Assembly: GCA_037445065.1 (NCBI GenBank)
Contig: JBBILD010000006.1
Location: forward strand, 128,001-192,000
Origin: Myxococcales bacterium
GTDB lineage: Bacteria > Desulfobacterota > Binatia > HRBIN30
DNA length: 64,000 bases
Direction: 5' to 3'
The translations under genes and the position numbers were made by a program. The notes under the pieces are model-generated. The model worked only from the letters and a program-made list of their open reading frames with translations. It searched no databases and had not been told where the DNA came from. Within the stretch, counting starts at the first letter, position 1, and the number at the start of each line of letters is the position of its first letter. Positions 14,229 to 62,892 of this stretch are shown in pieces.

Positions 14229-14951
14229 TTAGGGCGCACACCCGGCCAGTGCCACCCCCACGGCGGCAATGAGTTCGTCAACGGTAATGATCCCGTCCTG
14301 GTTGGCATCTCCGGCGGCGCACTGTGCAAGCGGGGCCTGTTCGAGAGCGATGTTTACCATGAGTAAGACGTTGTTGATCGTGACTTCCCCGTCGCCATCG
14401 CAGTCCCCGATACACCCCGTTGGAGGTTGCGTGGGAGTGGGGGTTGGAAAGGTGCCTTCACCTTGGCAGGTGCCGAGGATGCAATCGCTATCGTCCACAC
14501 ACGCAAAGCCGTCTCCGGAACATACGCGGCCTGTGGCCCAGCAAAGCGAACCGGGGCAGTGTTCGTTGCGTAAGCAGGACAAGCCCTTGAGTTCCCCTCC
14601 AAGGCAAATCTTCTGCGTGCCTCGACAGGGCGCCGCCGAGCCGCAGTTGTACGCGGGATCGCAGCACTCGCCCTGATATGGGCCGCCCTCGCAGGTGCCG
14701 AGTTCGGGATCGTTTGTGCAGGAGCCGACGCTCGAGCATTGGCTTCCCGGACAATCACAGTCGAAGCCGTCGTCTGGGCCACCGTCGCAGACTCCCTGTG
14801 CGACCACGCAGGAGCCGCTCGGGCAGTCTTCCACGCGGGCGCACGGGCGGCCGTCGTTCGGTCCACCGGAGCAGAGGCGTTGTTGAGCCAGTAGTTCGCT
14901 AGCGAAGGAGCACGCGAGCAGCAGGAAGAAGGCGCGGGCGGTTGTCATCAT
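14229..14951 (-). CDS. Secreted Cys-rich repeat protein with C-terminal dockerin-like (paired EF-hand-like) module
   Basis: Signal peptide; five CxG(G)...G..C repeats; PTPTPT linker; CIGDCDGDGEVT...DANQDGIITVDEL...GC. Confidence 0.8.
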   Translation of the reverse strand: MMTTARAFFLLLACSFASELLAQQRLCSGGPNDGRPCARVEDCPSGSCVVAQGVCDGGPDDGFDCDCPGSQCSSVGSCTNDPELGTCEGGPYQGECCDPAYNCGSAAPCRGTQKICLGGELKGLSCLRNEHCPGSLCWATGRVCSGDGFACVDDSDCILGTCQGEGTFPTPTPTQPPTGCIGDCDGDGEVTINNVLLMVNIALEQAPLAQCAAGDANQDGIITVDELIAAVGVALAGCAP

Positions 14952-15062
14952 TGTGTTTCAGCTATTCGCGTTTGGCGCAGCAGAGTCAACGCTTTCGTTT
15001 CGCACTGGCATAGCAACCGGGGGTTCGCTACTCGAACAAGCCCGCCGCAAGGAGGAAGCGAG

Positions 15063-15623
15063 ATGGCTGCGACTCCGTCCAAGATGGTTCCCCTAGGCAC
15101 CAAGGCTCCATCGTTTCGATTGCCCGACCCTGCGGGCAAAATCGTTTCCCTTGACGATTTCGCTGACAAACCGGCGCTCCTCGTAATGTTCATCTGCAAC
15201 CATTGTCCGTATGTGAAGCATATCCGCTCGGCTTTGGCACAGTTCGCTCGGGAGTATGTTCCGAAGGGCCTAGCCATCGTCGGGATCAACTCGAACGACA
15301 TTTCCCAGTATCCGGAGGACAGCCCGGAGAAGATGGCTGAGGAGGCGCGCGAGGCAGGGTATATCTTTCCCTACCTCTTCGATGAGACGCAGGAAGTTGC
15401 GAAGGCGTACGGGGCGGCGTGCACTCCGGATTTCTTCCTGTTCGACCGCGAGCGAAAACTGGTGTACCGCGGGCAATTCGACGACAGCCGCCCTGGCTCG
15501 AACGTCCCAGTAACCGGGGCCGACTTGCGCGCCGCGGTGGACGCAGTACTGGCAGGCCGACCTGTGCCCGAGAAACAGAAGCCGAGCTTGGGCTGCAATA
15601 TCAAGTGGAAGCAGGCCAGTTGA
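15063..15623 (+). CDS. Thioredoxin-family / AhpC-TSA-like redoxin
   Basis: FICNHCPYV, INSND, YGAACTPDFF, YRGQFDDSRP, SLGCNIKW. Confidence 0.92.
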   Translation: MAATPSKMVPLGTKAPSFRLPDPAGKIVSLDDFADKPALLVMFICNHCPYVKHIRSALAQFAREYVPKGLAIVGINSNDISQYPEDSPEKMAEEAREAGYIFPYLFDETQEVAKAYGAACTPDFFLFDRERKLVYRGQFDDSRPGSNVPVTGADLRAAVDAVLAGRPVPEKQKPSLGCNIKWKQAS

Positions 15624-15639
15624 GGAGCGCGCCCGCACC

Positions 15640-16623
15640 CTAAAACCGGTCCGAGATCCAGTACACACTGCGTTCGGGCGGAAACAGCTCGGCCCATAGG
15701 GAATCCTGCTCGGTAGAGGCGAGTGAAGTTCCCATTTTCGATGCAAGCCGGCGCGGGTCGAGCACCCGCCACATGCAGAACAAGTCCTCGACGCGGTTCA
15801 GGGTGAGGCCGCGCACTTGCAGAGCGGCACGGATCTCTGGCTCATGCTCCAAGTGGGCAAGCGTACCGGGGAGGTGCGAGGCTCTGCGCTCGTGGTGGGC
15901 CAGTGCGAGTTGGACCAAGGCCTGGGTGTGACCGGGTGCAAAAGCGTGCTCCATGACCACGTTGAGGTCGAACAACTGTGTGGCGCGCGCGTATGCCAAG
16001 ACTTGTCCATGCTGGCAGGCGACCAGGAAGGACTCGTCTGGGTTTCCCGCGTAACGGAGCTGGCCTTGCCAGTAGGCTACGTCACGGATGGTGCAGCCGT
16101 ACAGCGCCTGCGTGTACGCGTCGTACAGGGCGCGCACGGCGGGCAAATCGTCGCGAGCAGCTGGCCGGACTTCATAGGTGGGTGGAGTGTCATCCGCGGC
16201 CGCGGTGCCGGTAATCAAGGTCAGGAGCCGGGGGTGGCTTCGATAACCGAGGGCTCCGTAGAACTCGAGTCGGGAGGCAAACAGTAGCGACACCTCGAAG
16301 GGCTGCGCGGCGAGCTGCTCTAGGCCGAAGCGCAGCAACTTGAAGGCGAGGCCGCGCCTGCGGTCAGTTGGGGTGGTGAACACGTTGCCGACTCCAGCGA
16401 CTTCGATTTCCCCGCAGGAAGCGCGAACCCGTTTGCGGAAGACCTGGAAGGTGCTCACGATCCGAGGTCCATCGCAAGCGACAAAGCAGAGATCGTCGCG
16501 AAACGCTGGATCGTGGTAAAAGTAGCGGGCAAAAAAATCGCGGTCCCCGTACCACTCGCGCAACAAATCCAAAACCGCCTCTCGCTCACCCGGGCGAATG
16601 GAGCGGAACTCGATGCACGACAT
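15640..16623 (-). CDS. GNAT family N-acetyltransferase (Eis-like tandem GNAT)
   Basis: GVGNVFT.P..RRRGLA acetyl-CoA motif, FYGALGY; second GNAT-like half. Confidence 0.8.
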   Translation of the reverse strand: MSCIEFRSIRPGEREAVLDLLREWYGDRDFFARYFYHDPAFRDDLCFVACDGPRIVSTFQVFRKRVRASCGEIEVAGVGNVFTTPTDRRRGLAFKLLRFGLEQLAAQPFEVSLLFASRLEFYGALGYRSHPRLLTLITGTAAADDTPPTYEVRPAARDDLPAVRALYDAYTQALYGCTIRDVAYWQGQLRYAGNPDESFLVACQHGQVLAYARATQLFDLNVVMEHAFAPGHTQALVQLALAHHERRASHLPGTLAHLEHEPEIRAALQVRGLTLNRVEDLFCMWRVLDPRRLASKMGTSLASTEQDSLWAELFPPERSVYWISDRF

Positions 16624-16677
16624 GGGAGGCCAGCTTCCATAAAGCGCACGGCGGGGCAAGGGCTCGCAGGCCGCGAG

Positions 16678-17895
16678 TCAGGAATCGGTGCGAGAGGCAC
16701 CCGAGAAGCGATCGTTCGGCTGCCCGGGGAGGTCGGGCGGGAACCAGAGGGCAGTATCGTCACGCAGCAAAACTGCGAGCCCAACGAGTTCGACACCCAG
16801 TACGGTTGCTAAGAGGCTGGTGGCGAAGAGCAGCCAGCGCGCCGGCGCAAAAACAGGCCAGGACGTAGAGAAGAGCCACAACGCGGCGGTCAGCACGCCC
16901 ACCGACCCGGCAAGGCAGGCCGCACGGAACAGCGGCTGGGCAGAGACCCCGCCCCAAGCACGGGGAAAGCGTTGCGGCGGAACGCTGGCGGGCATGGCGG
17001 CAGCGATTTGTGCGAGAATGGCCAAGCCCGCGCGCGATCCTGCCGCGCAAGCCCACAGCCAGGTGACAAACTCGAGGAGAGTTTCCGGGATCGATCGGGC
17101 AAGCACGAGAAAGCCAGCCATCGTCAAGCTGCAAACCCAGAAAAACCGACACGCCCAGCGACGCAAGCCCGCGAAGGCGCCGTTCGCCCGAGGTCTAAGC
17201 AATGAAGGGGGCGAGCGATCGAACCAAAGCCCGCGGCTGGCACCGGTCCAGGGCCGCATGTTTTCCGGCGCTGGTTCAGGTGCCGGAACGGACGCCACTG
17301 CGACACCGATCTTTTGCAGTGCTGCACGCAGCGATGACGCATCGAGTTCTCCGGTCAGGTCGCGTAGCGCTTGAGCAAGAACGGAAGTGGGCCCCAAACA
17401 GGCGAACCAGTGGCTCTGGGGAGTGACGCTTTGCTGTGGGCGCGAGGCTTGTGGGGTGGGCTGCCACGGCCCATCAGCGCTTACGGGAGCCTCCATGATT
17501 GCCACCCGATCTGAGGTCTCCGCCACCGCCTGCACCAAAGCAAAGAGAGCCGCCGGGTTGCGCGCCAACCCAACCGTAGCCAGGCAAGTGAAACTGCCGC
17601 GAGCGCTGGCGAGCGCCCTTCGGTATACGGCACTCGAGCTTTCCCCCGAACGAGCCGGCAACAATTGCACCGACCCCACTTGTATCGGCTCTTGTGGGGG
17701 AGCGTCCGCTACGTGGGTCTCGAGCACCACTACCTCCAGTCGCGCGAAACCGTAGCCGGCGAGCTTTTCCTCGAGCGCCAGTACGCGGTCGAGAAGCGAG
17801 GCGAGGGAGCCCCCCGAAGGTGCAGGCACGATGAGCGAAAGTCTCCCTCCGCTCACAAGAGGCCGCTCGCAGCTTGGTTCCCCACCCCTCGGCAT
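16678..17895 (-). CDS. Membrane protein with a degenerate GT2-like N-terminal domain
   Basis: LSLIVPA..LEVVVLETH..RRALASARGSFTCL follows GT2 topology but lacks DDGS and DxD; 3-4 C-terminal hydrophobic helices. Confidence 0.5.
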   Translation of the reverse strand: MPRGGEPSCERPLVSGGRLSLIVPAPSGGSLASLLDRVLALEEKLAGYGFARLEVVVLETHVADAPPQEPIQVGSVQLLPARSGESSSAVYRRALASARGSFTCLATVGLARNPAALFALVQAVAETSDRVAIMEAPVSADGPWQPTPQASRPQQSVTPQSHWFACLGPTSVLAQALRDLTGELDASSLRAALQKIGVAVASVPAPEPAPENMRPWTGASRGLWFDRSPPSLLRPRANGAFAGLRRWACRFFWVCSLTMAGFLVLARSIPETLLEFVTWLWACAAGSRAGLAILAQIAAAMPASVPPQRFPRAWGGVSAQPLFRAACLAGSVGVLTAALWLFSTSWPVFAPARWLLFATSLLATVLGVELVGLAVLLRDDTALWFPPDLPGQPNDRFSGASRTDS

Positions 17896-17989
17896 GGGCA
17901 GTATTTTGCTGCAGGTGCTGGCACGAAGCACGAGGAAAAGTTTGCCTCAGCGCCGGGGGCCACTTGCCGCCAGTTAGCCGCGGAAGCGT

Positions 17990-19291: not shown

Positions 19292-19341
19292 AGGTGCTTT
19301 TCCTTCCGCCAGCGCCTGGCCACTCCTTCCCTGTTGTTGGG

Positions 19342-20106: not shown

Positions 20107-20123
20107 CGTTCCACCCTCCCGAA

Positions 20124-21244: not shown

Positions 21245-21271
21245 GCCAACCCCTCCCTCCCATGGCCGAAC

Positions 21272-29770: not shown

Positions 29771-31852
29771 ATGCGAGAGTGGTCCCGCCTAGGAGCGGGC
29801 GTCGGCTTGGTCTTGTTTTTGTTGGTGGGGACGCAGCTCGAAGCACAAGTTTGTACCGGGGACTGCTCGGCGGACAACGAAGTCACCATTGATGAGATCA
29901 TCCTTGCGGTCAACATTGCTTTGGGATCGGCGGCTTCCTCCGCCTGCACTGCAGCGGATCAAAACGGCGACGGAGAAGTCACCATCGACGAGATCATCCA
30001 GGCGGTGAACAACGCCTTGAATGGCTGCACTCAGAGCACCCAGGACCCGTGGTTCTTCCAAAACCCGGCTCCCTCCGGCGAAGACTTGTTCGCCGTCAGC
30101 TTTCCCGACGCGCAGCACGGCTTTGCGGTGGGCAGCTTTTCCGAAGTCGTGCGCACGCGCGATGGTGGCCAGACGTGGGAGTCGGTGGCCGTCAATGACT
30201 TCTGGAACTTTTTTGCGGTCCGCTTCCTCGACGCGCAGCGGGGTTGGGTGGTCGGTGAGGCAGGGACCATGTACTTCACTGCCGACGGCGGAGACACGTG
30301 GAGTTCTCGTACCAGCGGAACGCAGCAAGACTTGAACGGGCTCGTCTTCCTTGATCCGGCGCGCGGCTTCGCGGTGGGCAGCGGAGGCGTGCTCCTGCGC
30401 ACGTCGGATGGTGGCGACACCTGGAATTCCACGGTGCTCAATGCCAGCCGGGATCTCTTTGCCATCAACTTTGCGGGACCGCAGCGCGGTTGGATCGTCG
30501 GCACGATGGGGAGCATTTGGCATTCAAGCGATAGCGGTGCGAGTTGGCAGACCCAGGCAAGCAATACTGGGGTGACTCTGTACTCCGTGGCCTTTGCCAA
30601 CGAGCAGCTTGGCTTGGTGGTGGGAGACAGCGGAACGATTTTACGCACCGAGGATGGGGGCGCCCGCTGGATCCCATCGGTTGCCCCTGAGATCGTCCCG
30701 CTGTACGGCGTGGCTTGGGCCGACGCGCAGACTGCATGGATCGTCGGTGACCTGGATGACTTTGGCGAAGCTGTCATTTTCAAGTCGACGGACGGCGGCC
30801 TCACTTGGACCCGACAAGACAGCCTCAACAATAACCCGCTGTACGGGCTGGCTGCCTTAGCGATCAACGGTGCTCGGGCCGTGGGTGGCGCGGGTACGTT
30901 GCTTGCCACTGATAACGGCGAGACTTGGTCGCTACGGAACCCGGCACCGACCAATGATCTCTACGGCGTGGCTTTCCCACCCGGCGAGCCAAACGTGGGA
31001 TACGCGGTCGGCGATTTCGGAGCCATCGCGGTGACGAGCGATGGAGGAGAGACATGGCTCTCGCGGGATGCCGGGACGACCGCCGGCCTGTTCGCGGTGA
31101 CTTCGATTGACCCCCAACTGGCCTGGGTTGCCGGCCAGGAGGGCTTGATTCTTTACACCCGCGACGGCGGCAGTACGTGGCTTCCGCAGAGTTCCGGAAC
31201 CACCGCTTCGTTGTTCGGTATCCAGTTCGTGACCGGTACGCAGGGGTGGGCGGTCGGCGAGAGCGGAACGATTCGCGTAACCACGGACGGCGGTGGCACT
31301 TGGCGCGGGCAAAGCAGCGGCACCACACAGGACTTGTTTGGCGTTCGCTTCGTGGACGTGTCTACCGGGTGGGTCGTCGGGGATAACGGCACGATCCTGC
31401 GCACCACCAACGGTGGTGCGACCTGGCAGCGGCAAGCCAGCGGTACGACTGAGCCACTCTTTGCCGTGGCTTGCGTGGACGCATCGACTTGCTGGGTCGT
31501 CGGTGGTAGCGGGCAGACCGATACCACCCCTCCGGTTCAGGTCCTGCTTAAAACCACCGACGGAGGACAAAGCTGGACGCAGCAAAATGTCTTTTGCGGC
31601 AGCAACCCTTCAGTTCCAGACAGTTCCGCTTGCCCAGACCCGCTTTTCGCCATTGTGGCGTTCGATCGGCAGACGGCTTGGGCGGTTGGGGATTTTGGTT
31701 TGATCTTGGCCACACGGGACGGGCAGCGGTGGGAGCCGCAAGCGAGCCCCACGGATGACCTACTGAATGCTCTCGCGTTCCCCACCCGGCAGGTGGGTTA
31801 CATTGTTGCAACCCGCGGCACCATCTTGAAAACAGAGACGGGAGGTTTTTGA
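29771..31852 (+). CDS. Secreted YCF48/BNR-repeat beta-propeller protein with N-terminal dockerin-like module
   Basis: Signal peptide; CTGDCSADNEVTIDE..GC; about 14 repeats of L..V.F.D...GW.VG..GTI..T.DGG.TW. Confidence 0.88.
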   Translation: MREWSRLGAGVGLVLFLLVGTQLEAQVCTGDCSADNEVTIDEIILAVNIALGSAASSACTAADQNGDGEVTIDEIIQAVNNALNGCTQSTQDPWFFQNPAPSGEDLFAVSFPDAQHGFAVGSFSEVVRTRDGGQTWESVAVNDFWNFFAVRFLDAQRGWVVGEAGTMYFTADGGDTWSSRTSGTQQDLNGLVFLDPARGFAVGSGGVLLRTSDGGDTWNSTVLNASRDLFAINFAGPQRGWIVGTMGSIWHSSDSGASWQTQASNTGVTLYSVAFANEQLGLVVGDSGTILRTEDGGARWIPSVAPEIVPLYGVAWADAQTAWIVGDLDDFGEAVIFKSTDGGLTWTRQDSLNNNPLYGLAALAINGARAVGGAGTLLATDNGETWSLRNPAPTNDLYGVAFPPGEPNVGYAVGDFGAIAVTSDGGETWLSRDAGTTAGLFAVTSIDPQLAWVAGQEGLILYTRDGGSTWLPQSSGTTASLFGIQFVTGTQGWAVGESGTIRVTTDGGGTWRGQSSGTTQDLFGVRFVDVSTGWVVGDNGTILRTTNGGATWQRQASGTTEPLFAVACVDASTCWVVGGSGQTDTTPPVQVLLKTTDGGQSWTQQNVFCGSNPSVPDSSACPDPLFAIVAFDRQTAWAVGDFGLILATRDGQRWEPQASPTDDLLNALAFPTRQVGYIVATRGTILKTETGGF

Positions 31853-43310: not shown

Positions 43311-43656
43311 GGGGGCGATCTGGTTTCGACGGAGGTGAGAAGGTACGTGGTTGCGTGCCCGGGAGCCTGGGTACCGGTGAACAACCCCAGGGCTGCATAA
43401 ACGCAGACGAACCGCTTGCTCTGGCTGCCTAAAGCGCAGTCACGTCTCCCCGACTCGAGCCCGTAGGGTCGGGTGAGGCGTCGCAAATCGGGCTAAGCGG
43501 TGGTGGCTGCTCGGACACCACCGACGAAAACGTACGAGCTGGCACTTGGATTCCCCGCCCGTGGGGCCGCCAAGTGCGAGAATCAAACGCGTGGCTACGC
43601 ACGTAGAGACCACGGCTGACTGCCTCCGGACGGGGGTTCGATTCCCCCCGCCTCCA
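43311..43656 (+). ncRNA. ssrA: tmRNA; tag (A)ADEPLALAA
   Basis: 5' GGGGGCGATCTGGTTTCGAC; 3' T-arm GGGGGTTCGATTCCCCC; acceptor stem GGGGGCG/CGCCTCC with G3-U; tag ORF GCA43403..TAA43432. CCA not encoded. Confidence 0.96.
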
Positions 43657-43665
43657 CTTTCTTCA

Positions 43666-45571: not shown

Positions 45572-48323
45572 ATGCCCGGCCGGGGTGGTTCGCGCCTTGT
45601 GGCCTCCGCACGCTTCGTTCTGCCTGGGAGCGCACTGGCAGCGTTGGCCGCCCTCGGCTTCCGGGGCGACAACGGCGGGGAGCGGCAGGCGGCGTGGCGA
45701 GCGGCGGATTTCGTGGCCTTCAGAACGGTGGAGGCCACGCGCGCTGGGACGGGTGCGAAGTCTCCCGTCCCCGCTCTGTTCGAAGCAGGCCGTGTACAGG
45801 CTGCGCCGCGGCAGGGACCTTCGGCATTGCCGCCGTTGGTGCAGGCGGCGGTGTCCAGAGCAGTAGGTAAGGATCGCGCCCAATTTCATGCGCGCCAGGA
45901 GTTGCAGAGCGACGCGATTCGCTTCGCGCAGCCCGGGCGAGGTCTCGAGGCAGAACTGCGCCCAGAGCACGGGCTGACGGTAAGGAGCGTGTCTGGCCAC
46001 CAATGGGGCCTGGAACTGACGCGTTGGGGCTGTGGGAAAGATTTGCGCTCTGCCGGGCCGGTAACCGAGCAGCACCTGCTGGCAAACGAAGTCACGTGGG
46101 TCCGGAACGGAGGCGGCCTCCGCGAGTGGTATGTGCATGGGCCGTTCGGGATTCAGCAGGGCTTCACGGTCGTGAGCGCGGGTGAGTCTTGTAGGCGCGA
46201 GGCGGCGGATGAGCTGGTACTCGAACTCCAGGTGCGTGGCAGCGTGATCGGCGAACCCGAGCAAGATTGGCGGAGCGTGCTCTGGCGCGACGCAAGGACG
46301 CAAGAGCCCGTCGTCCGCTATTCGGGTCTCATTGCATACGATGCGAACCACCGAGCGCTGCCGGCACGCATGGAGTTGGGGCGGGACACGTTGGAGCTGC
46401 GGGTGGCGCTGGCGGGGGCGGAGTATCCAGTAGTGGTGGATCCGTTCGTGCAGGAGGCCAAGCTTACCGCAGCAGGCACTGCAGGCTTGGCCTTGTTCGG
46501 AGCGTCAGTGGCAATTGACGGAGACACGATCGTTGTCGGGGCGCCGGGCGTGGACTTTGATGTCGGGGCTGCGTACGTGTTCGAAAAACCAGCCTCTGGT
46601 TGGAACATCACGTCTACCTACTCGGCCAAGCTCACTCCCACGTTCGACGACACGTTTTTGCCTGAAGGGTTCGGTTACGCCGTCGCCATCTCCGGCAATA
46701 CGATCGTCGTGGGGGCTCCGTTTTCCACGGTGCACGAGGCGCTCATGATGAAAGAGGCGATCGGCTTGGCGTATGTATACGTGAAACCGGATACGGGCTG
46801 GGCCGACATGACCGAAACGGCCCGGCTCCGGCCAAGCGATGCCGGCTCGGTCGAGGACTTCTTCGGCTACTCGGTCGCCATCGAAGGCGACACAATCGTC
46901 GTGGGCGCTCCATCTCACACGCCGCCCCCCCGGGGGCGAGGCGTTGCAGTTCAATGGATCCACATACGTCTTCGTGAAGCCCGAATCGGGTTGGTCCAAC
47001 ATGACTGAGACTGCCAAGCTCGAAGCAGAAGGAAAGTGGTTGGGTGCCTCGGTGGGCATCAGCGGTGACGTTGTTGTGGTGGGTGCCCCACTCCATGATC
47101 TTGAAGAAAGAGTGAATGCGGGCGCCGCGTACGTGTTTGCACGGCCCGCCGGCGGGTGGACTGGACATGTGCCGCCAGTTGCGAAGCTTACCGCCTCCGA
47201 CGGGGAAGCGGGGGATCAACTGGGGCACAGCGCGGCCATCGATGGCGATACCATCGTCGTCGGCACCTTGTTCGACGACGTTGATGGAAGTGCGGACTAA
47301 GGTTCCGTTTATGTGTTTGCCCGCCCGAGCGGTGGCTGGCAGGACACGACGGAAACAGCCAGGCTGACGACCTCGGACGGGGCAGCCGAAGATTGGTTCG
47401 GGCTTGGCTTGGCGATCGAGCACGATACGATCGTTGCGGGAGCGCAGCAACACGACGTTGATAGTGCTTCGAATCAAGGCGCTGCTTACGTGTTCCTCAG
47501 GCCCTCGGGTGGCTGGGCAACGGCGACAGAGGACGGCAAGCCGTTGGCGTCGGATGGGCAAGCTGACGCCAACTTTGGTGTGTCCATCGGTTTATCGGGC
47601 GGGGTGCTAGTGGCGGGTGCGCTCTTTCACGACCAGAACGGGAACGTAGATCAGGGCTCCGCCTATGTTTTCGCCCGGGAGTTGGAGCCCCCTTCTCCAA
47701 CGCCGACCTCGAGTGCGACCCCAACCCCAACCCGGACCCCGACGCCGACCCTGACCCCGACGCTGACCCCGAGCGGCGCTTGCCCAGCGCTGCCGCGGCT
47801 CGACTGCGATCTACCAGCGCGAGCGTCTTTGTGGCTCCGCGACTCTCTCCTCGATCGCGGCGACCGGTTCGCTCTCCGCTTGTTGCGCAGTGCCCCGAAG
47901 CGCAAGCGGGCTGAGTTAGGCGACCCGACCGAAAGCGCGACGTACTCGGTCTGCATGTGGCAAGGTACGGAACCGATGGCACAAATGCGAGCGTGGGATC
48001 GGAGGAAGTGGACCTCCGGGCCGCGCGGTTATCGGTACATTGATCGCTCGGCATTGAGTGACGGACTCGTCCTGCTCGGTTTGCGGACTGGCGGCGATAG
48101 GTCGGCCAGAAGGACGCGCGTGATCGCCTTCGGCAGGGGGGTAGCCTTGCCGGAAGTGGCACTTCCCCTGAGCCTGCCGGTGCAGCTCACGGTTCAAGTG
48201 GTGGAGTCAGAGAGTGGCGTCTGCTTTGGCCAAACGTTTACCGATGCTCAGGTGATTGAAAACCGTGAGGATCCCACCGGGCGAACACGGGTGTTTCGAG
48301 CCGAACGGCCCAAGGCGCCGTAA
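45572..48323 (+). pseudogene. FG-GAP (integrin-like) repeat surface protein disrupted by a +1 frameshift (C7 at 46925-46931) and an in-frame TAA (47298-47300)
   Basis: YPVVVDP, then repeats FG.SVAI.GDTIVVGAP..G.AYVF.KP..GW....A.L continue across three ORFs; PT linker and C-terminal domain. Confidence 0.85.
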
Positions 48324-49567: not shown

Positions 49568-50605
49568 TCAGCAACAACCGTTTTTTGTGTCGTTCACCGG
49601 GGCCTCGAACGGGGCGCTTGCGCCGCATCCGGGGAAGATTCCGTAATGGCGTGAAAAGTCGCCGATGAATTCAAAGTGAGGCGCAAAACGGGTCTGGCGC
49701 AGCATCCGCCAGGTGTTCCCGCAAACTGGAAAGACCCGGCCGGCGTCCATTTCGTGACGTTTGTCCAAGCGGAACCGGTGTGGAAACCACGGGATGGTTC
49801 CACGATAGATCACCGCCTGCCCGTAGTCCTCGCAAGCGTCTTCCAGTCCTTCGAGCCGAAACATGCGATAGGTAGCCGAGTAAAAGCGCACAGCGCCAAC
49901 GCGCGCGGCAAGTTTGGGGTCCGTGAGTTCGATCGGGCGATCTTCCACTAAGCGGGGATCGGTGAACCCAGTGCATCGCACCAGACGGAGAAAATCGTTC
50001 CAGTAGAGTGCCCCTCCTAGGCATTCCGCGTAAAGCACGGGGTCATTTTGGACCTCGAGTGGCACGCGCCGGTCGGCGTAAACATCGGAAAAGTAGAATT
50101 CGCCTCCGAACTTGAGCAAGCGGTACACCCCGGCGAGCACTGCCGCCTTGTCGGCGGAGAGATTCACCACGCAGTTCGAGACGACGACGTCGAAGCTCGC
50201 TGGTTCCAAATCGAGTTCTTCCAAGCGTTCGATGTACCCGCGCAGAAAACGCACGTTGGAGAACCCAAAGCGCTCGGCGTGCCATCGCCGGTACCGCTCC
50301 GCGACCGCAAGCTGCTCCTCCGTCATATCCACCCCGACGACTTCACCGCTCGGCCCTACGAGTTGCGCGAGCAGGTACACGTCTCTTCCAGCGCCGCAGC
50401 CCAGATCGAGAACGCGGCAGCCGCTGAGCAGTGGCGGGCAGCTGAGGCCGCAACCGTAGTACCGCTTCGCGACCTCCGGGTGAATGTTGGCGAGAAGTGC
50501 TTTTAGCCACGGTGGCGTGGCGACCGGGTCGCAACACGCCGTCGTCTTCAAGTCCGCGGACTGCTGCAGGGTTTTGCCGTAATATTCCTGAACGAGTTCA
50601 TGCAT
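49568..50605 (-). CDS. arsM: Arsenite methyltransferase-like SAM methyltransferase
   Basis: YYG..L..SADLKT.ACC, YYGCG, LDLGCGAGRD, GVDMT, SNCVVNL, ECLGGALYW, C-terminal CC. Confidence 0.82.
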   Translation of the reverse strand: MHELVQEYYGKTLQQSADLKTTACCDPVATPPWLKALLANIHPEVAKRYYGCGLSCPPLLSGCRVLDLGCGAGRDVYLLAQLVGPSGEVVGVDMTEEQLAVAERYRRWHAERFGFSNVRFLRGYIERLEELDLEPASFDVVVSNCVVNLSADKAAVLAGVYRLLKFGGEFYFSDVYADRRVPLEVQNDPVLYAECLGGALYWNDFLRLVRCTGFTDPRLVEDRPIELTDPKLAARVGAVRFYSATYRMFRLEGLEDACEDYGQAVIYRGTIPWFPHRFRLDKRHEMDAGRVFPVCGNTWRMLRQTRFAPHFEFIGDFSRHYGIFPGCGASAPFEAPVNDTKNGCC

Positions 50606-50654
50606 GCGGGTTCGCCTCCCTGAATGATGTTCTGTGGGATTCGTTGCGCGTTTG

Positions 50655-50680
50655 GTCGCACCAAGTCCTCGCCTCGTTAC
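50655..50680 (-). promoter_or_regulatory. Putative ECF sigma promoter (arsM-pit unit)
   Basis: GTAACG-N16-CGAC(CAA) on the minus strand, 50 bp upstream of ATG50605. Confidence 0.65.
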
Positions 50681-51032
50681 AATTGCCAGACTCGCTCCCA
50701 TGCCGCGCCTCTCGACTCACCCTGTACGTTGCGAAGCAGCGTGAACCTCTTCTCGGGCCCCCGCATAGGCCCGAGAAGAAGCGCAGCCCGCAGATCGCGG
50801 AAAACCCAGTGTCGGCGCGCACGGGCGCGCTCGTCGGTACAGTTGCCTCCCGCTGTCAAGGGCGCCCGGAGCCACGGCGTTATCGCGCCTTCGCTGGCAC
50901 GCCCAAACAGCGCCGACGGGCCAGGCAAGGGAAGCGCATGCAGTTCTGGCTTTGGACAGCCCTCCGAACTGAGTTGCGTGCGCTCCCGTGCAACGCGGAA
51001 ACCGTCTCGCTTGTTGCGGACCGCACATTGCG

Positions 51033-51671
51033 TCATGGTGCGAGATGGACACCGCGCGCCAGTGAGGGCGGCAATTCGCTGAGGTGGGCTGGTTCGTCAA
51101 TGTCAGTGAGCGCTGGAAACTCCTTCCAAAGCCACCCAATCTCGCGTAGGCGTGCCCTGGTTTGTGCCGCTACAGACGAAGTACTCCACGCGATGTCGGA
51201 AAACAGCCGCGGGTGGAAGTGGCGGGCGCCGAGAAGCACGTAGCCGCCGTCAGTACTAGGAACCAGCACCGCGTCGTGGCGCGTCAGCGCCTGCCCACAA
51301 GCCCTGAGGACGGAGCGTTCTAGGGCAGGACAATCGGTTCCAAGAAGCAGCACCGCATTCCCCAACGCTGCCGATCGTTCCGCAGCCCGAGCAAGGCGCC
51401 GACCTAGATCTCCAGCGCCTTGGTCTGTCCAACGGGTAACGCGAGCAGCGAGTCGCTTACGCCATGCCGTCCACACCGGATTCTCTGGCTCGGGAGTAAC
51501 GCAGAGTTCTACTTCGCCGATACCCGAACGGCACGCTTCTCGAACCGTGTAGAGGAGCATGCGGCGGGCGAGAAGCGCGGCGCCTACTTCTCCGAGCGCG
51601 GGGATGAGCCGCGTTTTTACGAACCCGGGAACGGGTGCCTTTGCGAACACCACAAGGCGCAAGCCCTTCAC
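51033..51671 (-). CDS. TIGR04282/DUF2064-type glycosyltransferase-like protein
   Basis: FAKAPVPGFVKTRL, QGAGDLG.R, GTDCP, DGGYVL, WST, DIDEP; GTGA overlap with the upstream gene. Confidence 0.88.
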   Translation of the reverse strand: MKGLRLVVFAKAPVPGFVKTRLIPALGEVGAALLARRMLLYTVREACRSGIGEVELCVTPEPENPVWTAWRKRLAARVTRWTDQGAGDLGRRLARAAERSAALGNAVLLLGTDCPALERSVLRACGQALTRHDAVLVPSTDGGYVLLGARHFHPRLFSDIAWSTSSVAAQTRARLREIGWLWKEFPALTDIDEPAHLSELPPSLARGVHLAP

Positions 51672-52342
51672 GGGTAGGCCCTCGCCAAATCTTCCGCAGG
51701 GACGCCGAGCCAATACAAGCAGCGAAGCCGCCACATGAGAAGGATCGTTCTCCATACCCCGTACGTTTCCCACCGGCGCCCAGAAGTGGTTACGCGCGAG
51801 CCCACGCAAGCCGGGCGGCCGAGCTGCTTCAGCGCACGGGACAGCCAGATGTCTTCCATCAACGGTTGGTCGGGATAGCCCCCGACTTTCCAGAAAACGT
51901 CGCGGCGGACGAAAATGGCTTGGTCTCCGGTGGCAATCCCACTGAGTCGGGAGCGCAGGTTCATCAGCGCGGCAATCACTGGGAACCAGCGGCTTCGACC
52001 TTCGATGCGTACGTCGAAGCGGCCCCAAAGGACCTGGGGGCGGGAGAGTGCTCGAGCGATTTGGTAGCACGCGTCGGGAGGCAGCCGCGTATCCGCATGC
52101 AGAAAGACGAGTGCCTCGCCGGTAGCCACGCTCGCACCTGCGTTCATTTGCCTTGCTCTTCCCCGCGGGGCGCACAAGACCCGGAAACCAAGGGCACGCG
52201 CAAAGGCGACCGATCCGTCTTGACTGCCGCCGTCTACAATCAGCACCTCGCACCCAGCCCGGCGCAGTGGCAGCAAGTGCTGCAACAACGAGGGGAGCTG
52301 CGTCATTTCGTTGAGCATCGGAACGATGAGGGAGATTTTCAT
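51668..52342 (-). CDS. TIGR04283-type GT2 glycosyltransferase
   Basis: SLIVPMLNE, VDGGSQD, GRARQMNAGA, FLHADTRLP, GDQAIF, PLMED, TSGRRW. Confidence 0.9.
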   Translation of the reverse strand: MKISLIVPMLNEMTQLPSLLQHLLPLRRAGCEVLIVDGGSQDGSVAFARALGFRVLCAPRGRARQMNAGASVATGEALVFLHADTRLPPDACYQIARALSRPQVLWGRFDVRIEGRSRWFPVIAALMNLRSRLSGIATGDQAIFVRRDVFWKVGGYPDQPLMEDIWLSRALKQLGRPACVGSRVTTSGRRWETYGVWRTILLMWRLRCLYWLGVPAEDLARAYP

Positions 52343-53262
52343 CGTCTGCTTGCTACAGAGTCGTTCAGACTCCAATCGTAGTCTCCGAAGCGGATGGGGA
52401 TGCGGCCAGCCCGCAACGCCGTTTCTCGTTCAGGGGACAGCTCGAGTTCGCGTGCGTAGAGTGCCAGAAACTCCGCGAGCGAAGTCGCACCGCGGAAGCC
52501 CTGCTCGAAGTCGCCGCGATACCAGTGGAAGATCGGAGACACTTCCAAGTACGTCCCCACCAGCCGATTCCGACCGCGATCTCCGAGAAATCGGCGCGCT
52601 TGATCCTCGAGCTGTGCATCGAGTTCACTTCCTGTGTACGCCTCGGGCCGCAATGCTGGACAGCCGACACTGGCGCAATTGAGGGCAAAGTGAACCCGTG
52701 GGTCTCGGTAGCGCCCTGAGCCGCGAATGAGTCCGTGTTCGATATCGTCCAGAGAGACCGTCTTGCTCAGCAAGCGAATGAACGGACGCTTCCAAGGCGA
52801 TTGGAAGAGGGACCCCAAGTCCTTGATGGACTTGAGCCCCGGGTATCGGCTCAAAACGAGTTGGATGGTGAAGGCATTGTAGGCGTTGATGAGGAACGCC
52901 AGTTGCTGGCTCGCGGGCCAGGTGTCAAAGGCGGCTTGTTGCACCGCCGATAGGTTGGCCAAATAGGCATCCAGCGCTGCTTGATTTCTCTTGAATCCCG
53001 CGTAGTCCACAGTACTCGCGTGCCCTTCGTACACCCAACGCACGTGTTGTTTGAGGAGCGTGTCCCAGGAGCTGTGGTCCGCGAACGCGAAAACAGGCCA
53101 GGCCGGGAACAGTCCGAGCAAGAGGAAGGAAAAGCAGGCTAGGAGGTTCCGGTGGCAGGTCGCGCCGCGCTGGGGCGTGCTCGCGGAAGGCCGCGGAGAC
53201 TCGGCCGCTCTCCCTTTTCCGGTGGCAAACAGGGCTGCCATCGCTCTCTGGACTAGGGCCAT
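52339..53262 (-). CDS. DUF547 domain secreted protein (start uncertain)
   Basis: VDYAG, LAFLINAYNA, SIKDLG, LDDIEH, PRVHFALNCASVGCP.L, SPIF.WY, YDWSLN. Confidence 0.9.
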   Translation of the reverse strand: MALVQRAMAALFATGKGRAAESPRPSASTPQRGATCHRNLLACFSFLLLGLFPAWPVFAFADHSSWDTLLKQHVRWVYEGHASTVDYAGFKRNQAALDAYLANLSAVQQAAFDTWPASQQLAFLINAYNAFTIQLVLSRYPGLKSIKDLGSLFQSPWKRPFIRLLSKTVSLDDIEHGLIRGSGRYRDPRVHFALNCASVGCPALRPEAYTGSELDAQLEDQARRFLGDRGRNRLVGTYLEVSPIFHWYRGDFEQGFRGATSLAEFLALYARELELSPERETALRAGRIPIRFGDYDWSLNDSVASRR

Positions 53263-54248
53263 GACGGCCGAGCCTCCGCTCCTGCCGAGGTTTGCAGGGC
53301 GCCACCGCAACTACTGCCCTGGCCCGCAGTGCAGCCGTAGCAATGGTCGGCAACCCGAATCGGCGAACCGGCAGGATCCCACTCGAGCAAGTCGCGCAAG
53401 TGGGCGGGCCGCAGCTGGCGGTTGAGCGGCAAGCGAAGCTGCTGGTTGAAGTCGCAATCGTACAGGTAGCCCTGCCAGTCCACACTCACGAGGGAACGGC
53501 ACATGACCTGGTCTGTGTTGCCCGCCCGGAAGTGCTCCTTGAGCAATCGCAGGTAGTTGTGAAACTCGCCGCGCGAAAGCAGCCACGAGCCGAAACGCTG
53601 AATCGGCATGTTGGTTAGAACGAAGAGGTGGTGGAAAACGATGCCGAAGCGCTCGCGTAGCTCCTGCTTGTACGCCGCTTCGAGGGACGTTTGGTTCGGC
53701 GGTAGGCTGGGGCCGAGCGGATTGTATACGAGATGAAGCCGCAGGGGGGAGTCCTCTTGGCCGTAGCCAAGGGCGTTCAGCTTCCGTAATGCCGCAATGC
53801 TCTTTTCGAAAACACCCTTGCCGCGCTGGCGATCTACGTTGTCGGCGGAGTAGCAGGGCAGAGATGCGACCACCTCCACTGAGTGGTCGCGCAGAAACTC
53901 AGCCAGGTCTTCCTCGCCTGGCTCGAACAGGACCGTAAGGTTGCAACGGTCGATGACGCGCACCCCGAGACCATGCGCGGCACGCACAAGATCCCGGAAC
54001 CCTGGATGCAATTCCGGAGCCCCGCCGGTAAGGTCGAGGGCGGAGATCCGCCGCGCTGCGAGCACTTTTGGGATCAGCGCCAAGATGTCTGCTTGCATCA
54101 TCTCTGTGCGGTACGGCCCGGCGTTGACATGGCAGTGCATGCACGATTGGTTGCAGCGGTAGCCCAGGTTCACCTGCAGCGTGTTTACGGGCCCGCGCTT
54201 CAGTGCGGGGAAATCTGTGGGCTCGAGTAGTGGCAAAACGGTCTGCAT
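53253..54248 (-). CDS. arsS: Arsenosugar biosynthesis radical SAM protein (Cys form)
   Basis: LQVNLGYRCNQSCMHCHV, DLTGGAPE, IDRCNL, ASLPCY, LVYNP, MCR, YDCDFNQ, HCYGCTAGQGSSCGG. Confidence 0.93.
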   Translation of the reverse strand: MQTVLPLLEPTDFPALKRGPVNTLQVNLGYRCNQSCMHCHVNAGPYRTEMMQADILALIPKVLAARRISALDLTGGAPELHPGFRDLVRAAHGLGVRVIDRCNLTVLFEPGEEDLAEFLRDHSVEVVASLPCYSADNVDRQRGKGVFEKSIAALRKLNALGYGQEDSPLRLHLVYNPLGPSLPPNQTSLEAAYKQELRERFGIVFHHLFVLTNMPIQRFGSWLLSRGEFHNYLRLLKEHFRAGNTDQVMCRSLVSVDWQGYLYDCDFNQQLRLPLNRQLRPAHLRDLLEWDPAGSPIRVADHCYGCTAGQGSSCGGALQTSAGAEARPSWP

Positions 54249-57437: not shown

Positions 57438-57509
57438 CTGACGGGCAGCGTCGGTGGCATTTCCGCTGGACACGGATGTCTCCCGAGAAGGGCGATTCAT
57501 GCCAGATCT

Positions 57510-58868
57510 TCAGAGGACCAGTTTGTACGCGAGACCGAACGCGCCGCTCAGCGCAATAACTGGGATCACGCCGGCTTGCTGGCGAAAGAGCAAGTAGGTG
57601 GCGCCAAGGGCAATGCATGCTGAGGGCCAGTCGAAACGGCCGCTGAATCCATGTGGCCAAAGCACGTGGTAAGTCAGGAACAATGCCAAATACACGATCA
57701 CCCCGGTTACCGCCGCAGTAACTGCCTGTAGCGGCGCCGTGAGCGTCAGATTGCCGCGCGTGGATTCGACCATAGGGCCACCCGCGAGAATGAACAGAAA
57801 AGAGGGCAGAAAGGTAAACCACGTGGCCACTAGGGCGGCGAGTGCCCCTCCTGCAAAGGTGTACTCCGGGCCGAGGAGTGCCTGCCGGTAGCCGGCTACG
57901 AAGGCGACGAAGGCCACCACCATGATCAGTGGACCTGGAGTCGTTTCGCCGAGCGCTAAGCCGTCAATCATCTCTCCAGGAGTAAGCCAGCCGTAATGGT
58001 TCACAGCGGCTTGGTACACATAGGGAAGCACCGCGTACGCGCCCCCGAAGGTGAGCAAGGCGACCTTGGTAAAGAACCAAGTCATCTGCGTGAACATGCC
58101 ACGCCAGCCGTCCGTTGCGGCCAGCCACGCCATTGGCACCACCCAAAGCAACGCACCGGCCACCAGCACTCGGGCAAAGCTGCGCGCGCGAAAGCGGGTG
58201 TGTTCTGGTGGGGGCGTGTCCTCGTCGATCAGCGCGGGAGTAAATTGCGAGACGGCCCCATTTGTTTTTCCCAGCAATCGCTCAGGAGCCAAGCGCCAGG
58301 CCAAGTAGCCGACCACCGCCGCGCCGGTCAAAATCGCCGGGAACGGCACCTGGAGGGCGGAGATGGCCACGAAGGAGGCGGCCGAAATTGCCCAAAGCAA
58401 ATGGCTGCGAAGCGTACGCGTGCCAATGCGGTAAGCGGCGTGCGCGACGATCGCGGTGACCGCCGGTTTGAACCCGTAAAAGAGCCCGGCCACAGCGGGC
58501 TGGTTGCCGAACGCAACATAGAGCCACGCTAGTAGGGTCAGGAGGATCAGCGACGGCAGGACGAACAGGGCTCCAGCAGCAATTCCGCCCCACGTGCGAT
58601 GCAGTAACCAGCCAATGTAGGTGGCAAGCTGCTGGGCTTCCGGCCCGGGAAGCAGCATGCAGTAGTTCAGAGCGTGCAGAAAGCGAGGTTCGCTGATCCA
58701 ACGCCTCCGCTCGACGAGTTCGGCGTGCATGATCGCGATTTGGCCGGCTGGACCACCAAAGCTCACGAAACCAAGTTGGAGCCAGAACCGAAGCGCCTCC
58801 CGAAAGCTCACAGTCGCTGGTCGCGAGGTTGGTCCCTGGGAAGGGGGTTCCGTCGTCTGCGCTGTCAC
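57510..58868 (-). CDS. chrA: Long-chain chromate efflux transporter
   Basis: SFGGPAGQIA, LPGPEAQQLA; second half TFGGAYAVLPY, GETTPGPLI, TFLPSF. Confidence 0.95.
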   Translation of the reverse strand: MTAQTTEPPSQGPTSRPATVSFREALRFWLQLGFVSFGGPAGQIAIMHAELVERRRWISEPRFLHALNYCMLLPGPEAQQLATYIGWLLHRTWGGIAAGALFVLPSLILLTLLAWLYVAFGNQPAVAGLFYGFKPAVTAIVAHAAYRIGTRTLRSHLLWAISAASFVAISALQVPFPAILTGAAVVGYLAWRLAPERLLGKTNGAVSQFTPALIDEDTPPPEHTRFRARSFARVLVAGALLWVVPMAWLAATDGWRGMFTQMTWFFTKVALLTFGGAYAVLPYVYQAAVNHYGWLTPGEMIDGLALGETTPGPLIMVVAFVAFVAGYRQALLGPEYTFAGGALAALVATWFTFLPSFLFILAGGPMVESTRGNLTLTAPLQAVTAAVTGVIVYLALFLTYHVLWPHGFSGRFDWPSACIALGATYLLFRQQAGVIPVIALSGAFGLAYKLVL

Positions 58869-60259: not shown

Positions 60260-61790
60260 GCGCATGCACCCAGCCGCCGCACGGCAAAGGTGGCCTAGTA
60301 GTCGCGGGGGGCGTACTCGCGCATGCGCGTGGTTCCTCGCGGTCGTGTTCTTTTGGGCGAGCCCGGAGGCTCCATGGCTTTGGCACTCGCTGCCTGCCCG
60401 CTCGACTGCAATGAAGACGGGCTCGTATCGGAGAGCGGGTTAGCCCTTGGACTCGCCAACGTCTCTCCCCGAGCAGTGTTTGGCTGTCCCATCGCTGGCC
60501 CGCAGTCGACTCCAACGCCGACGGCGACTACGGCGTCGAGGACCTCATCCGCGGCGCCACGGCTCGCCGTCTGCAGTGCGAAGATGTGGCATCACCGGCA
60601 GGCTGGCGCGGTGCGGTCATTGACGCATTGCAGGGACTCTATCTCATCGGTGCCCAACTCCGCGCCAACCGCTGACCTCCACCGGGCACGTTGGCGTCCG
60701 ACCCCTCATGGGCGTGGCTTGGGCCGGATTCTGCCACGCCGAGCCCACGCCTCAGTTCCGGTTCGTCACCACAACCTCCAATCTGCCCTGGATGCGGCCT
60801 GGCTGGCCACCGCCGAATTGTGCCTTCGACCCGCCGGCGGCGGCTTATCTCGCGGACGTGCCGCCCACCCCTACCCTCACGCGCACGCCTACCAGCAGCA
60901 CACCTACCCCGGGCACGCGCACCCCCACTTGGATTGCCACGCCCACTCGGACGGCCACGGCCACTCCCACCGGTCCCACGCCCATACGTACACCGGTTCT
61001 CTTATGCGACACTGTGGATTGCCGCGGGATCGCTCCGGACTGCTGCCCGTGCCCTGGAGATTCCTGTCCCATTGCCGATTGGCAGGTGGAACCAATACCG
61101 CAAGTGCAAGGAGTATTTCTGCGCGCTCGATCCGTTGAGCCCGGCGTGCTTGGGCGAGTGTGGGACTTGTCCACCGAATGCTCCGTGTCTCGGCGCTCCA
61201 GCGACTGCTTGTGCGACAGCCACCTACACGCGTACGCCGGCGTGCAGCCCACGCGCACCGCCAGTCCCACTCGCACGCCCACCGGACCGACCCGTACTCC
61301 CACCGCGGCGCCACCCCCGGCGCGCATCCCCGGACTCGCTGTGCCGATCCTCGACGTATCCGGGAGCAACGGCGAGCGTGTGACCGTCGAGGCGTACTTA
61401 GTGGGCAGCGGCGGCAAGGTTGGCGGTTTGGAATTCGACTTGCTGCTGCTGCAGGCGGCTGTAGCGCCAGTGGCTGTGTCGGAACAATCGGCGGACAGCG
61501 TCCTGCAAGCAGCCTTTCTCTCCACCCACCGCTTGCCTCTAGTCGCGCCCCCGATCACCCGCTCGCTGGATTCGACCGGGTGCCGGTGCTGGTGGCGGAC
61601 CGCAACGTGACCGACCGACTGCGCGACGAAACGCAGATGTTGAGCGACGGTGTGGTGGTGACCTGCACTCTGACCATCCTCACCAACGCGCCTAGGGGCG
61701 GCCACCCGTTGCGCGTGGATCGGGCGCGAGCAGGCGATGAGCGCGGCACTTCCCTGTGGCCCTTCCGGGGCAGGCGACGCTGTGGGTGGG
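60260..61790 (+). pseudogene. Decayed secreted protein: truncated dockerin-like module, PT linkers, Cys-rich segment and cohesin-like domain; several frameshifts
   Basis: Fragments across frames: AWFLAVVFFWAS; CPLDCNEDGLV..GC; PTPTLTRTPT; CLGECGTCPPNAPC; VSGSNGERVTVEAYLVGSGGKVGGLEFDL..LSDGVVVTCTLTILTNAPRGGHPL..AGDERG. Confidence 0.6.
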
Positions 61791-61829
61791 GGGCTGTTCG
61801 GGGAGCTGCTGCTCAAAGGAGGCGCCACC

Positions 61830-62892
61830 ATGAGGCCGATGTTGTTCGGCACATACAGAACAACCGAACCCGCACCGCCTGCCTGGCTTGCAGCGCTGCT
61901 CGCGGCAGCCGTTGTTCAGGCTCGTGGGGCCTGGGGCCAGTTCGTACTCGAGGAAAGGTGGGACTTCCGGTACCCAGGCCCAGGCTATGTCATCGAGCGC
62001 ACGGCCTGGTATGCGGTCTACCCGGTCAAAACCAGAGATGCCATTGGTCCGCCTGGAGGCAGTGCGATGATTTCCGTTGCAGTGCGCCCGACATTGCGCT
62101 GTTGCGACTCAGAGCCGCAAGCGTTCTGGGAGGGGTGGTTTTCTCTCCGCTTCGCGGGTCTCGAGGGCTTGGGTTCCCCGTTGCAGCGCAGCTTTATCCG
62201 GCGCGGCCTGCGGTGAGCCGTGCTGCCCGATTCTTTGCAAGTCGTCCCGGACCGAGGGTCTGGATGGCGTCTTCTCCCTCCCCGTTGGGGTGGGTTTCGG
62301 TTCATTCCGGCCAAGGTTCCGGATATCCAGGTCCGGGAATGGCTCAGGGGGCTGAGAGCCCCTGGTCGCCCTGAGTCAGCGCCATGCGAGAGGATCGTGG
62401 TTTGGTTTTACGTTGGGCTTCAACTGTTGCTTGAAGGCGAGTCGGGCCCATTCGCAACGGACCCGATTCCGATTCACGAGTGGCCCGAGGGGGCCCTCGG
62501 GCCTGCCGTTTTTCGCGCCTGAGGATTCGGCGGTGTGCTGTGGCTTCTTTGTGCCTGCTACTGCCCGCCCAGGGACGTACCCGGCAGAGTGCGCGGGCAA
62601 CGAAGAAGGGATCCTGCTGCCGCCGGAGTGTGGCGGCTGCCAACGGGGCGCTTTGCACGTGGTGCCGTGCGTGGCCGACTGCAACCGCGACGGGCAGGTG
62701 ACCGTGGAGGAACTGGTGCGCGCGGTGGGCGTGGTGGTGGGCAGGGAGCGTTACGAAGGCTGCGCTGCTGCCGATGGCAACGAAGACGGGGCGGTCGCCT
62801 TGGATGAGGTGGTGCGTGGCGTGCGCAACGTGCTGACGAGCTGCCTGCAGACCTGGATGGAAGCGCACAACGCCCCTCTAGAGGTGCCGTGA
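61830..62892 (+). pseudogene. Secreted protein with a cohesin-like C-terminal half and dockerin-like module; in-frame TGA at 62214-62216 and a frameshift near 62450-62520
   Basis: AAAGGAGG RBS; hydrophobic signal; EDSAVCCGFFVPATARPGTYPAEC..CQRGALHVVP then CVADCNRDGQVTVEEL..DGNEDGAVALDEV..SC. Confidence 0.6.

Follow-up and report, generated by a model that had tools for sequence, protein, structure and literature searches.

The window analysed here, a stretch of 64,000 nucleotides from a genome of the class Binatia, encodes three copies of a 59-residue module with four cysteines, as well as the remnant of a cohesin gene. Analysis of the window, of the genome that contains it (G000; 3.79 Mb, 97.7% complete) and of its relatives suggests that the module is a dockerin and that it probably belongs to a system for displaying unrelated secreted proteins at the cell surface. 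The relevant features of the window are as follows.

14229 to 14951, minus strand: secreted Cys-rich protein of 240 residues with the module at its C-terminus (cargo), from the open reading frame (ORF) and its translation; Pfam Dockerin_1 gives 19.7 bits against a cut-off of 22.9
14238 to 14414, minus strand: copy 1 of the four-Cys dockerin-like module (profile A1, 79.3 bits)
29771 to 31852, plus strand: secreted YCF48/BNR-repeat propeller of 693 residues with the module directly after the signal peptide (cargo); PSII_BNR 212.8 bits
29852 to 30028, plus strand: copy 2 of the four-Cys dockerin-like module, used for the fold prediction (model pLDDT 92.8; dockerin matches)
60395 to 60580 (end approximate), plus strand: degenerate fourth copy with a frameshift near 60490, from three-frame translation (17.4 bits read through)
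61335 to 61775, plus strand: frameshifted cohesin after a Pro/Thr linker, a gene remnant broken at about 61530-61590, a break that the contigs of other runs do not span (41.5 bits read through)
61830 to 62667, plus strand: broken secreted domain upstream of copy 3, with a stop at 62214-62216 and a frameshift near 62490; it has no support as a cohesin, and a homologous stretch lies upstream of a module in a related genome (G008)
62668 to 62844, plus strand: copy 3 of the four-Cys dockerin-like module, the last part of a broken gene (65.6 bits)

The three copies lie where the original prediction placed them, each with cysteines at positions 1, 5, 32 and 59 and with two loop-helix halves of the form DxxxDGxVxxxE. 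The fourth copy, which had been described as truncated, is present but not truncated: beyond the frameshift near 60490 it continues in another frame, making it a degenerate, near-full copy. Read through with X, it scores about 17 bits over profile positions 1-52, and each half alone about 10. The gene that hosts copy 3 is broken by the stop and the frameshift listed above, and in a contig of another sequencing run copy 3 itself carries a 21-base deletion at 62741.

Two stretches of the window had been proposed as cohesin-like. The first, at about 61335-61770, is a real cohesin, although frameshifted: read through, it reaches 41.5 bits over positions 4-140 of profile A2, against 8.6 bits for the best of 300 shuffles. 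The second, at about 62500-62667, is not supported as a cohesin, scoring -3 bits read through and at most 5.6 bits for its counterpart in G008. The whole stretch of 60.3-62.9 kb looks like a decaying locus. It is unchanged in a run that may be its source, and a run X2 contig spanning 62025-63500 has no indel near 62490 among the rows listed. The cohesin candidates within the window are the weakest part of the case, and what is informative about the system is found in other regions of the genome.

Genome-wide, a profile of the three copies gives 56 domain matches in 54 ORFs, a number that excludes chance occurrence; the iterated profile finds 53 module ORFs at E<1e-10. By a simple rule, the module is C-terminal in 28 of the 53, just after a hydrophobic signal in 17 and internal in 8. 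Masking the module separates these ORFs into 44 cargo groups. None of the 53 has a C-terminal membrane segment, and the four matches to a lipobox pattern fall inside the module itself. At 50% identity and E<=1e-10, the module family comprises about 7,900 clusters, some of them other dockerins; no model for it was found in NCBIfam.

The cysteines vary in pairs. In 52 full module copies C5 and C32 are invariant, and the three copies that lack C1 all lack C59. Among 208 domains of the library proteins, the six full-length ones without C5 are also without C32, and seven of the eight that lack only C1 of the first pair also lack C59. Sixteen library domains were scored as having C1 but not C59; by eye, many of these are cut short or have the cysteine a few residues later. 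This joint loss suggests disulfide pairs C1-C59 and C5-C32. The two halves are also alike, sharing V-T-[VI]-D-E-[LI]-[VI]-x-x-V-N-x-A-L at loop positions 8-21 with a mean identity of 0.54; half-to-half symmetry of this kind underlies the two binding modes of type I dockerins.

The original prediction staked itself on the module folding like a dockerin, and the predicted model (pLDDT 92.8) matches dockerins first in both structure searches. The model contains helices at residues 16-26 and 48-60, each following a loop, and no helix before loop 1. In Foldseek, all rows listed down to rank 30 are dockerin entries (TMq 0.57-0.68), and EF-hand proteins reach a TMq of about 0.3 at an rmsd of about 10 Å. 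In the unbiased VIA structure search, 13 dockerins stand on top (best Z 6.8, rmsd 3.0, 60 aligned), the next unrelated entry having a Z of 3.0. The closest named clusters in the ESM Atlas are Dockerin_1 at 0.97, and EF-hand_1 stays under its cut-off for the window copies. An EF-hand pair was rejected on fold, given the missing entering helix before loop 1 and the superposition at about 10 Å.

Weighing against this assignment, the Foldseek E-values are weak (best 0.054) and the VIA Z is under 8. Pfam Dockerin_1 remains below its 22.9-bit cut-off at 19.7 and 18.6 bits, with no match for the third copy, and a PDB sequence search with the module profile returns EF-hand proteins and no dockerin in the best 60 of 237 rows. 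Glu occupies loop position 12 in 96% and 90% of the copies. By sequence (the Dockerin_1 scores and the EF-hand matches) the four-Cys module leans toward an EF-hand, but its model favors a dockerin, which is the fold predicted for it.

Intact cohesin genes, on whose existence the original prediction also depended, are present in the genome and across the order, and encode membrane-anchored, multi-cohesin proteins. The principal cohesin proteins of this genome are:

Contigs C11 and C22 (split across the two): main scaffold, with signal peptide, cohesin repeats, Pro/Thr linker and MYXO-CTERM
Contig C21: two-cohesin MYXO-CTERM anchor, behind a propeller-module-cohesin-module gene
Contig C11: three-cohesin lipoprotein
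Contigs C6 and C25: cohesin-plus-module proteins (adaptors)

An iterated cohesin profile identifies 17 domains at E<1e-4 in 14 ORF pieces. Three proteins score over the Pfam Cohesin cut-off, among them the three-cohesin lipoprotein at 89.5 bits; the main type, carried on the MYXO-CTERM scaffolds, falls below it. By both sequence and predicted fold, this main family matches cohesins, as had been proposed. Its model (pLDDT 95.9) has CaCohA2 as top match (E 5.8e-8, TM 0.75), with all listed rows being cohesins, and 15 of its 16 matches in a PDB sequence search are cohesin or scaffoldin chains. The main cohesin is accordingly predicted to fold like those of cellulosomes.

In the main scaffold, the end of C11 shares an overlap of 127 bases with the start of C22, and two of the cohesin copies match at 423/423 bases. 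Sequencing depth in a possible source run is 46.8 over the 477-base cohesin unit, as compared to 16.6 and 15.7 alongside, which hints at three copies; the G008 orthologue has three cohesins. Further anchored cohesins in the genome bring the lipoproteins to two in all and add one single cohesin with a membrane tail. Among the 11 cohesin-only ORF pieces, five are anchored: two by a lipobox, two by MYXO-CTERM over its cut-off and one by another membrane tail. Three of the 53 module ORFs also carry a cohesin, leaving polymerization by proteins with both modules, as the original prediction envisaged, a possibility. Relatives encode a seven-cohesin protein, a protein with a module followed by four cohesins, and one with five cohesins and a MYXO-CTERM-like tail. 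Two other proteins of relatives have their own architectures. One (L119:1729-5685; G009) is lipoprotein-like and joins five cohesins of the main type to a C-terminal domain of another kind. The other (L121:1462-4305; G002) combines four cohesins of the main type with another beta domain and a divergent dockerin-like C-terminal end, and by analogy it resembles a primary scaffoldin that might dock on another anchor.

Module and cohesin genes also occur together. A cluster consisting of a module protein, a divergent beta-domain protein with a module, and a cohesin scaffold is found in 11 non-identical loci, which were chosen as the best cohesin matches. The middle gene (L014:196-825; G000:C11:144691-145707) encodes a highly conserved Cys-containing beta domain of about 210 residues with no Pfam family. 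This domain is weakly cohesin-like (hhalign probability 24% and 14%; PDB E 0.58) and is possibly a divergent cohesin. In four genomes, a variant module with the face GNETV/VGDTV in place of VDEIV lies in an operon with its own branch of the cohesin tree (FastTree, midpoint-rooted, without support values). This C21-type pair may represent a separate specificity class.

Two other dockerin-like types are present. The first is a longer, Cys-richer variant of about 70 residues with the motif RVSAAE...RCGGNPxGC (L053, L054 and L055; G000:C46, C4 and C11), possibly a third specificity class. The second is a classical dockerin class without the four cysteines, with an xAAD loop motif and seven rows over the Pfam cut-off, which possibly partners the three-cohesin lipoprotein. 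The xAAD dockerins of the genome are located as follows.

G000:C5:50568-53081
G000:C8:37826-40924
G000:C25:36950-39976
G000:C29:26357-29512
G000:C17:54490-56946
G000:C14, C12 and C18

Module and cohesin are co-distributed across the class. All 30 relatives from the order carry the module (6-146 matches) and cohesins (5-46), with the fewest modules (6-10) and only distant cohesins in family f3. An even sample of 120 class genomes comprised 14 in the order and 106 outside; its counts are floors, since not all candidates of each genome were scored. The module is found in 14/14 order genomes and in 2/106 outside, at one or two copies each. The main cohesin is found in 14/14 and 1/106, and the single outside genome also has the module, with both in one ORF. 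In a sample of the phylum, the module was found in 0/60 other genomes at a strict E<=1e-20.

These data bear on the alternative that the module is a stand-alone Ca2+-binding tag, serving self-association, binding to the envelope or to minerals, or recognition in secretion, with the cohesins being spacers spread by descent. Such a role would suit the leaning of the sequence searches toward EF-hands and the ratio of modules to cohesins, about three to one. It would also suit the many cohesins of relatives that sit within long multi-domain proteins, and the proteins that carry several modules or three half-repeats. It leaves unexplained why near-identical cohesins stand in tandem with an anchor on non-catalytic proteins, whose genes form a conserved cluster with module genes, why a variant module is paired with its own cohesin class, and why the outside genome has both in one ORF. 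On balance this alternative is improbable.

The main scaffolds end in a recognizable sorting signal. The MYXO-CTERM model TIGR03901 (Cys motif, membrane helix, basic tail) scores 24.3 bits on C22 and 20.6 bits on C21 against a cut-off of 20, with the C21 protein reaching 15 bits when scanned whole. The genome has four MYXO-CTERM tags over the cut-off, two of which are on cohesin scaffolds. A gene resembling the myxosortase core (NF040914, Mrt_core) is single-copy in all 15 order genomes sampled (G000 and 14 others); it is over the cut-off in seven of the 14 and at 87-98 bits in the remainder. Rhombosortase (TIGR03902) was rejected as the sorting enzyme at 22.8 bits against a cut-off of 84. The type II secretin GspD, the sole subunit searched, is present (TIGR02517, 577 bits; cut-off 351).

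The cargo is diverse. Pfam was run on 51 of the 53 module ORFs, two fragments being left out, and a cargo family was assigned to 20 of the 51. The assigned families include propellers (FG-GAP/ASPIC, NHL, PD40, lactonase and BNR); trypsin, M10 and M28 peptidases, DUF3604 and Ig/DUF11; and the redox or copper-related P460-type cytochrome, MbnH, MbnP and OmcA/MtrC decaheme. By eye, most cargo proteins have signal peptides. No glycoside hydrolase, lyase, esterase or carbohydrate-binding module (CBM) was found among the Pfam families of the 51 ORFs, where divergent enzymes could be missed, and the same held for the 55 library representatives, out of 150, that were scanned (E 1e-12). One might still envisage a cryptic cellulosome, or another polysaccharide-degrading complex, whose enzymes are too divergent for Pfam: 31 of the 51 ORFs have no Pfam cargo family, and an anchoring scaffold, an adaptor and many dockerin proteins are the layout of complex cellulosomes. 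With both scans empty of carbohydrate-active families and the recognized cargo being redox, proteolytic, copper-related or adhesive, this explanation is very improbable.

The decaheme cargo protein scores 379 bits against TIGR03507 (cut-off 209) and carries the module after its signal peptide. The OmcA/MtrC family occurs in 20 class genomes of 81 searched. At its N-terminus, three of the 20 have the module after the signal peptide, six have a lipoprotein-type Cys by eye (a script pattern caught two of these six), five begin with a plain signal or a different domain, and in six the start falls outside the 130 residues viewed. To judge from these sequences, the module may stand on OmcA/MtrC where a lipid anchor stands in others, as in an anchor swap. 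In the genome, the decaheme gene heads a multiheme cytochrome cluster (L136:3763-12455; G000:C7) that continues with ORFs containing 7, 4, 18 and 6 CXXCH motifs, the last of them NrfH-like; frames here may be broken. The genes for MbnP (L137:4509-6524; G000:C10) and MbnH (L138:6098-7477; C2) lie on different contigs and both bear the module. Elsewhere these genes are often neighbors, and a shared scaffold could reunite their products.

Taken in aggregate, the observed sequences, architectures, gene clusters and co-distribution, together with the two predicted folds, suggest that this is probably a non-cellulosomal cohesin-dockerin display platform, on which about 50 unrelated secreted proteins would dock on membrane-anchored cohesin scaffolds at the cell surface. 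The original prediction, that a disulfide-clamped dockerin tags diverse non-carbohydrase cargo for cohesin scaffolds, is supported: of the four points on which it could have been refuted, the three tested (module fold, cohesin fold and intact cohesin genes) did not refute it.

If the platform operates in this way, the process likely involves: export by Sec of cargo that has no anchor of its own; folding of the module around two Ca2+ loops, clamped by the putative C1-C59 and C5-C32 disulfides; and cleavage and lipid anchoring of the signal peptide-(cohesin)n-Pro/Thr linker-MYXO-CTERM scaffolds by a myxosortase-like protease. By analogy with the Myxococcus pathway, type II secretion would move the scaffolds outward, and the lipoprotein cohesins would serve as a second type of anchor. 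Either of the two near-identical helix faces of the module may dock on a cohesin, as in the type I dual binding mode. Cohesin-plus-module adaptors could branch the assembly, and the divergent module/cohesin pair encoded in one operon could form a separate specificity class. Modelled as a complex with two Ca, the main cohesin (A3) and the module (A1) scored 0.16 against a mark of 0.32, with controls not folded; this result weighs neither for nor against docking.

Several observations weigh against this platform. About 53 module ORFs face 17 cohesin domains, only part of which are main-type. Within this genome alone, 2 of the 11 cohesin-only ORFs adjoin module ORFs, a number reached in 456 of 5000 random placements and not significant. 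As the order genomes are kin, the co-distribution amounts to one lineage-wide trait, which may reflect a single event, and not to 14 tests. Mrt_core scores 96.6 bits in G000 against a cut-off of 100, and it also occurs in 4/8 genomes of family f5, which is without the module. All three MtrC-module fusions come from a single family, and in two further genomes of the order MtrC lacks the module. Finally, MbnH, MbnP and P460-type proteins are usually periplasmic, making them a poor fit to the outer surface.

This last point is central to a version in which docking is the same but takes place mainly in the periplasm or at the inner leaflet, with lipoprotein cohesins tethering periplasmic enzymes and part of the cargo reaching the surface. 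The two lipoprotein cohesins are compatible with this version, as the default location of such proteins is periplasm-facing. The main-cohesin scaffolds, in contrast, end in MYXO-CTERM, which routes proteins to the surface in Myxococcus according to PMC11980579, and the OmcA/MtrC, Ig/DUF11, FG-GAP/ASPIC and peptidase cargo is typical of surfaces. A mainly periplasmic location has a small chance of being correct, comparable to that of the stand-alone tag.

Surface display can be extended to a more specific proposal, which is rather unlikely as it stands. In one Binatia order, a disulfide-locked cohesin-dockerin pair would provide general surface display in place of lipid anchors for 50 to more than 140 proteins per genome. 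Its tandem-cohesin MYXO-CTERM scaffolds, with orthogonal specificity classes, would align redox cargo (OmcA/MtrC decaheme, P460 and heme peroxidase-like proteins), and a cellulosome-type assembly would thereby organize extracellular electron transfer.

The closest known system is the type I cellulosome (C. thermocellum CipA, C. acetobutylicum CaCohA2-CaDoc0917, A. cellulolyticus ScaB/ScaC). The predicted dockerin and cohesin folds are alike in the two systems (best matches 6kgc/6kgf, 2ccl and 2vn5), as are the two symmetric loop-helix halves, the anchoring scaffolds with tandem cohesins, the adaptors and the dozens of tagged proteins. The Binatia system differs in its diderm host, four-Cys module, Cys-rich cohesin and Glu at loop position 12. 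It also differs in its MYXO-CTERM or lipoprotein anchors, with no SLH in the Pfam matches of the cohesin proteins scanned, and in its tags, which stand at either cargo end and were not found on a glycoside hydrolase or CBM. Further non-cellulosomal cohesin-dockerin systems are the amylosomes and mucinolysomes. A cellulosome, by the definition in PMC11557425, has at least one dockerin-fused glycoside hydrolase. Here, multi-cohesin scaffoldins are found (C11/C22; three cohesins in the C11 lipoprotein; two in C21; up to seven in a relative), and Pfam identified no dockerin-fused glycoside hydrolase on 51 of the 53 ORFs. The system would work like a complex cellulosome but, by this definition, is not one.

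Similar systems have been predicted in other phyla. The 'Planctosome' of Nemodlikiaceae (Planctomycetes) is a predicted non-cellulosomal cohesin/dockerin assembly that shares a diderm host, an anchor, an adaptor and peptidase cargo (PMC6461901). The complex described there is hypothetical and small, with peptidases and an anchor of the lamin-tail type. A genome of the Binatia system, by contrast, encodes tens to more than 100 tagged proteins, redox cargo and MYXO-CTERM scaffolds with several cohesins. Ca. Stygibacter (Cloacimonadota) has a scaffoldin with GH18/GH57/peptidase cargo and CBMs (PMC8542988), and ANME archaea have dockerin/cohesin proteins with S-layer and ABC-binding cargo (PMC9012536). 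Both resemble the present system in having predicted multi-cohesin scaffolds outside Clostridia and non-cellulase dockerin cargo; in the accessible portions of these two papers, no mention was found of a disulfide-clamped dockerin, a MYXO-CTERM anchor or multiheme cargo.

The anchoring route resembles MYXO-CTERM/myxosortase sorting (PMC11980579; bioRxiv 10.1101/2023.06.07.544157) in the Cys motif, membrane helix and basic tail of the scaffolds, the one Mrt_core-like gene and the type II secretin. Myxococcota tag dozens of proteins directly with MYXO-CTERM, whereas G000 has four such tags, two of which cohesins would amplify. The terms 'Binat', 'cohesin' and 'dockerin' were not found in the accessible text of the Haft preprint (bioRxiv 10.1101/2023.06.07.544157), nor was MYXO-CTERM found in cohesin/dockerin papers among the matches listed. 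No paper on Binatia cohesins or dockerins was found in literature short of most subscription journals and without supplements; Binatota annotation tables could list the domains. New here are the inventory of the whole genome, the two folds, the cluster of the main scaffold, the order-restricted co-distribution with a sorting enzyme and the redox cargo.

Cohesin-dockerin systems of this scale are known from Clostridia that degrade cellulose. The diderm lineage described here equals them in the number of tagged proteins, has no recognizable cellulases and combines the tags with a myxobacterial anchoring route. If binding holds, this would explain how an abundant uncultured group keeps many secreted proteins without anchors attached to its cells. 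The analysis also names a module family that Pfam and NCBIfam miss or label as EF-hand, and designer scaffolds in Gram-negative hosts would gain a pair that is stabilized by disulfides and possibly orthogonal.

The window contains several other features. At 74-7543 (plus strand), an open frame of about 2,490 residues with 11 DUF11 stretches and without the module is likely a large surface adhesin. A tmRNA gene at 43311-43657 (plus strand; tag ADEPLALAA) is followed by ORFs with FG-GAP-like repeats at 45572-48323, in two frames by eye, possibly decayed or inserted DNA. An arsenosugar-type group at 49568-54248 (minus strand) includes the radical SAM protein ArsS (TIGR04167) and a TIGR04283 glycosyltransferase, both over their cut-offs, and a gene resembling arsenite methyltransferases that stays below the cut-offs. 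The range 57510-58868 encodes a chromate efflux transporter.

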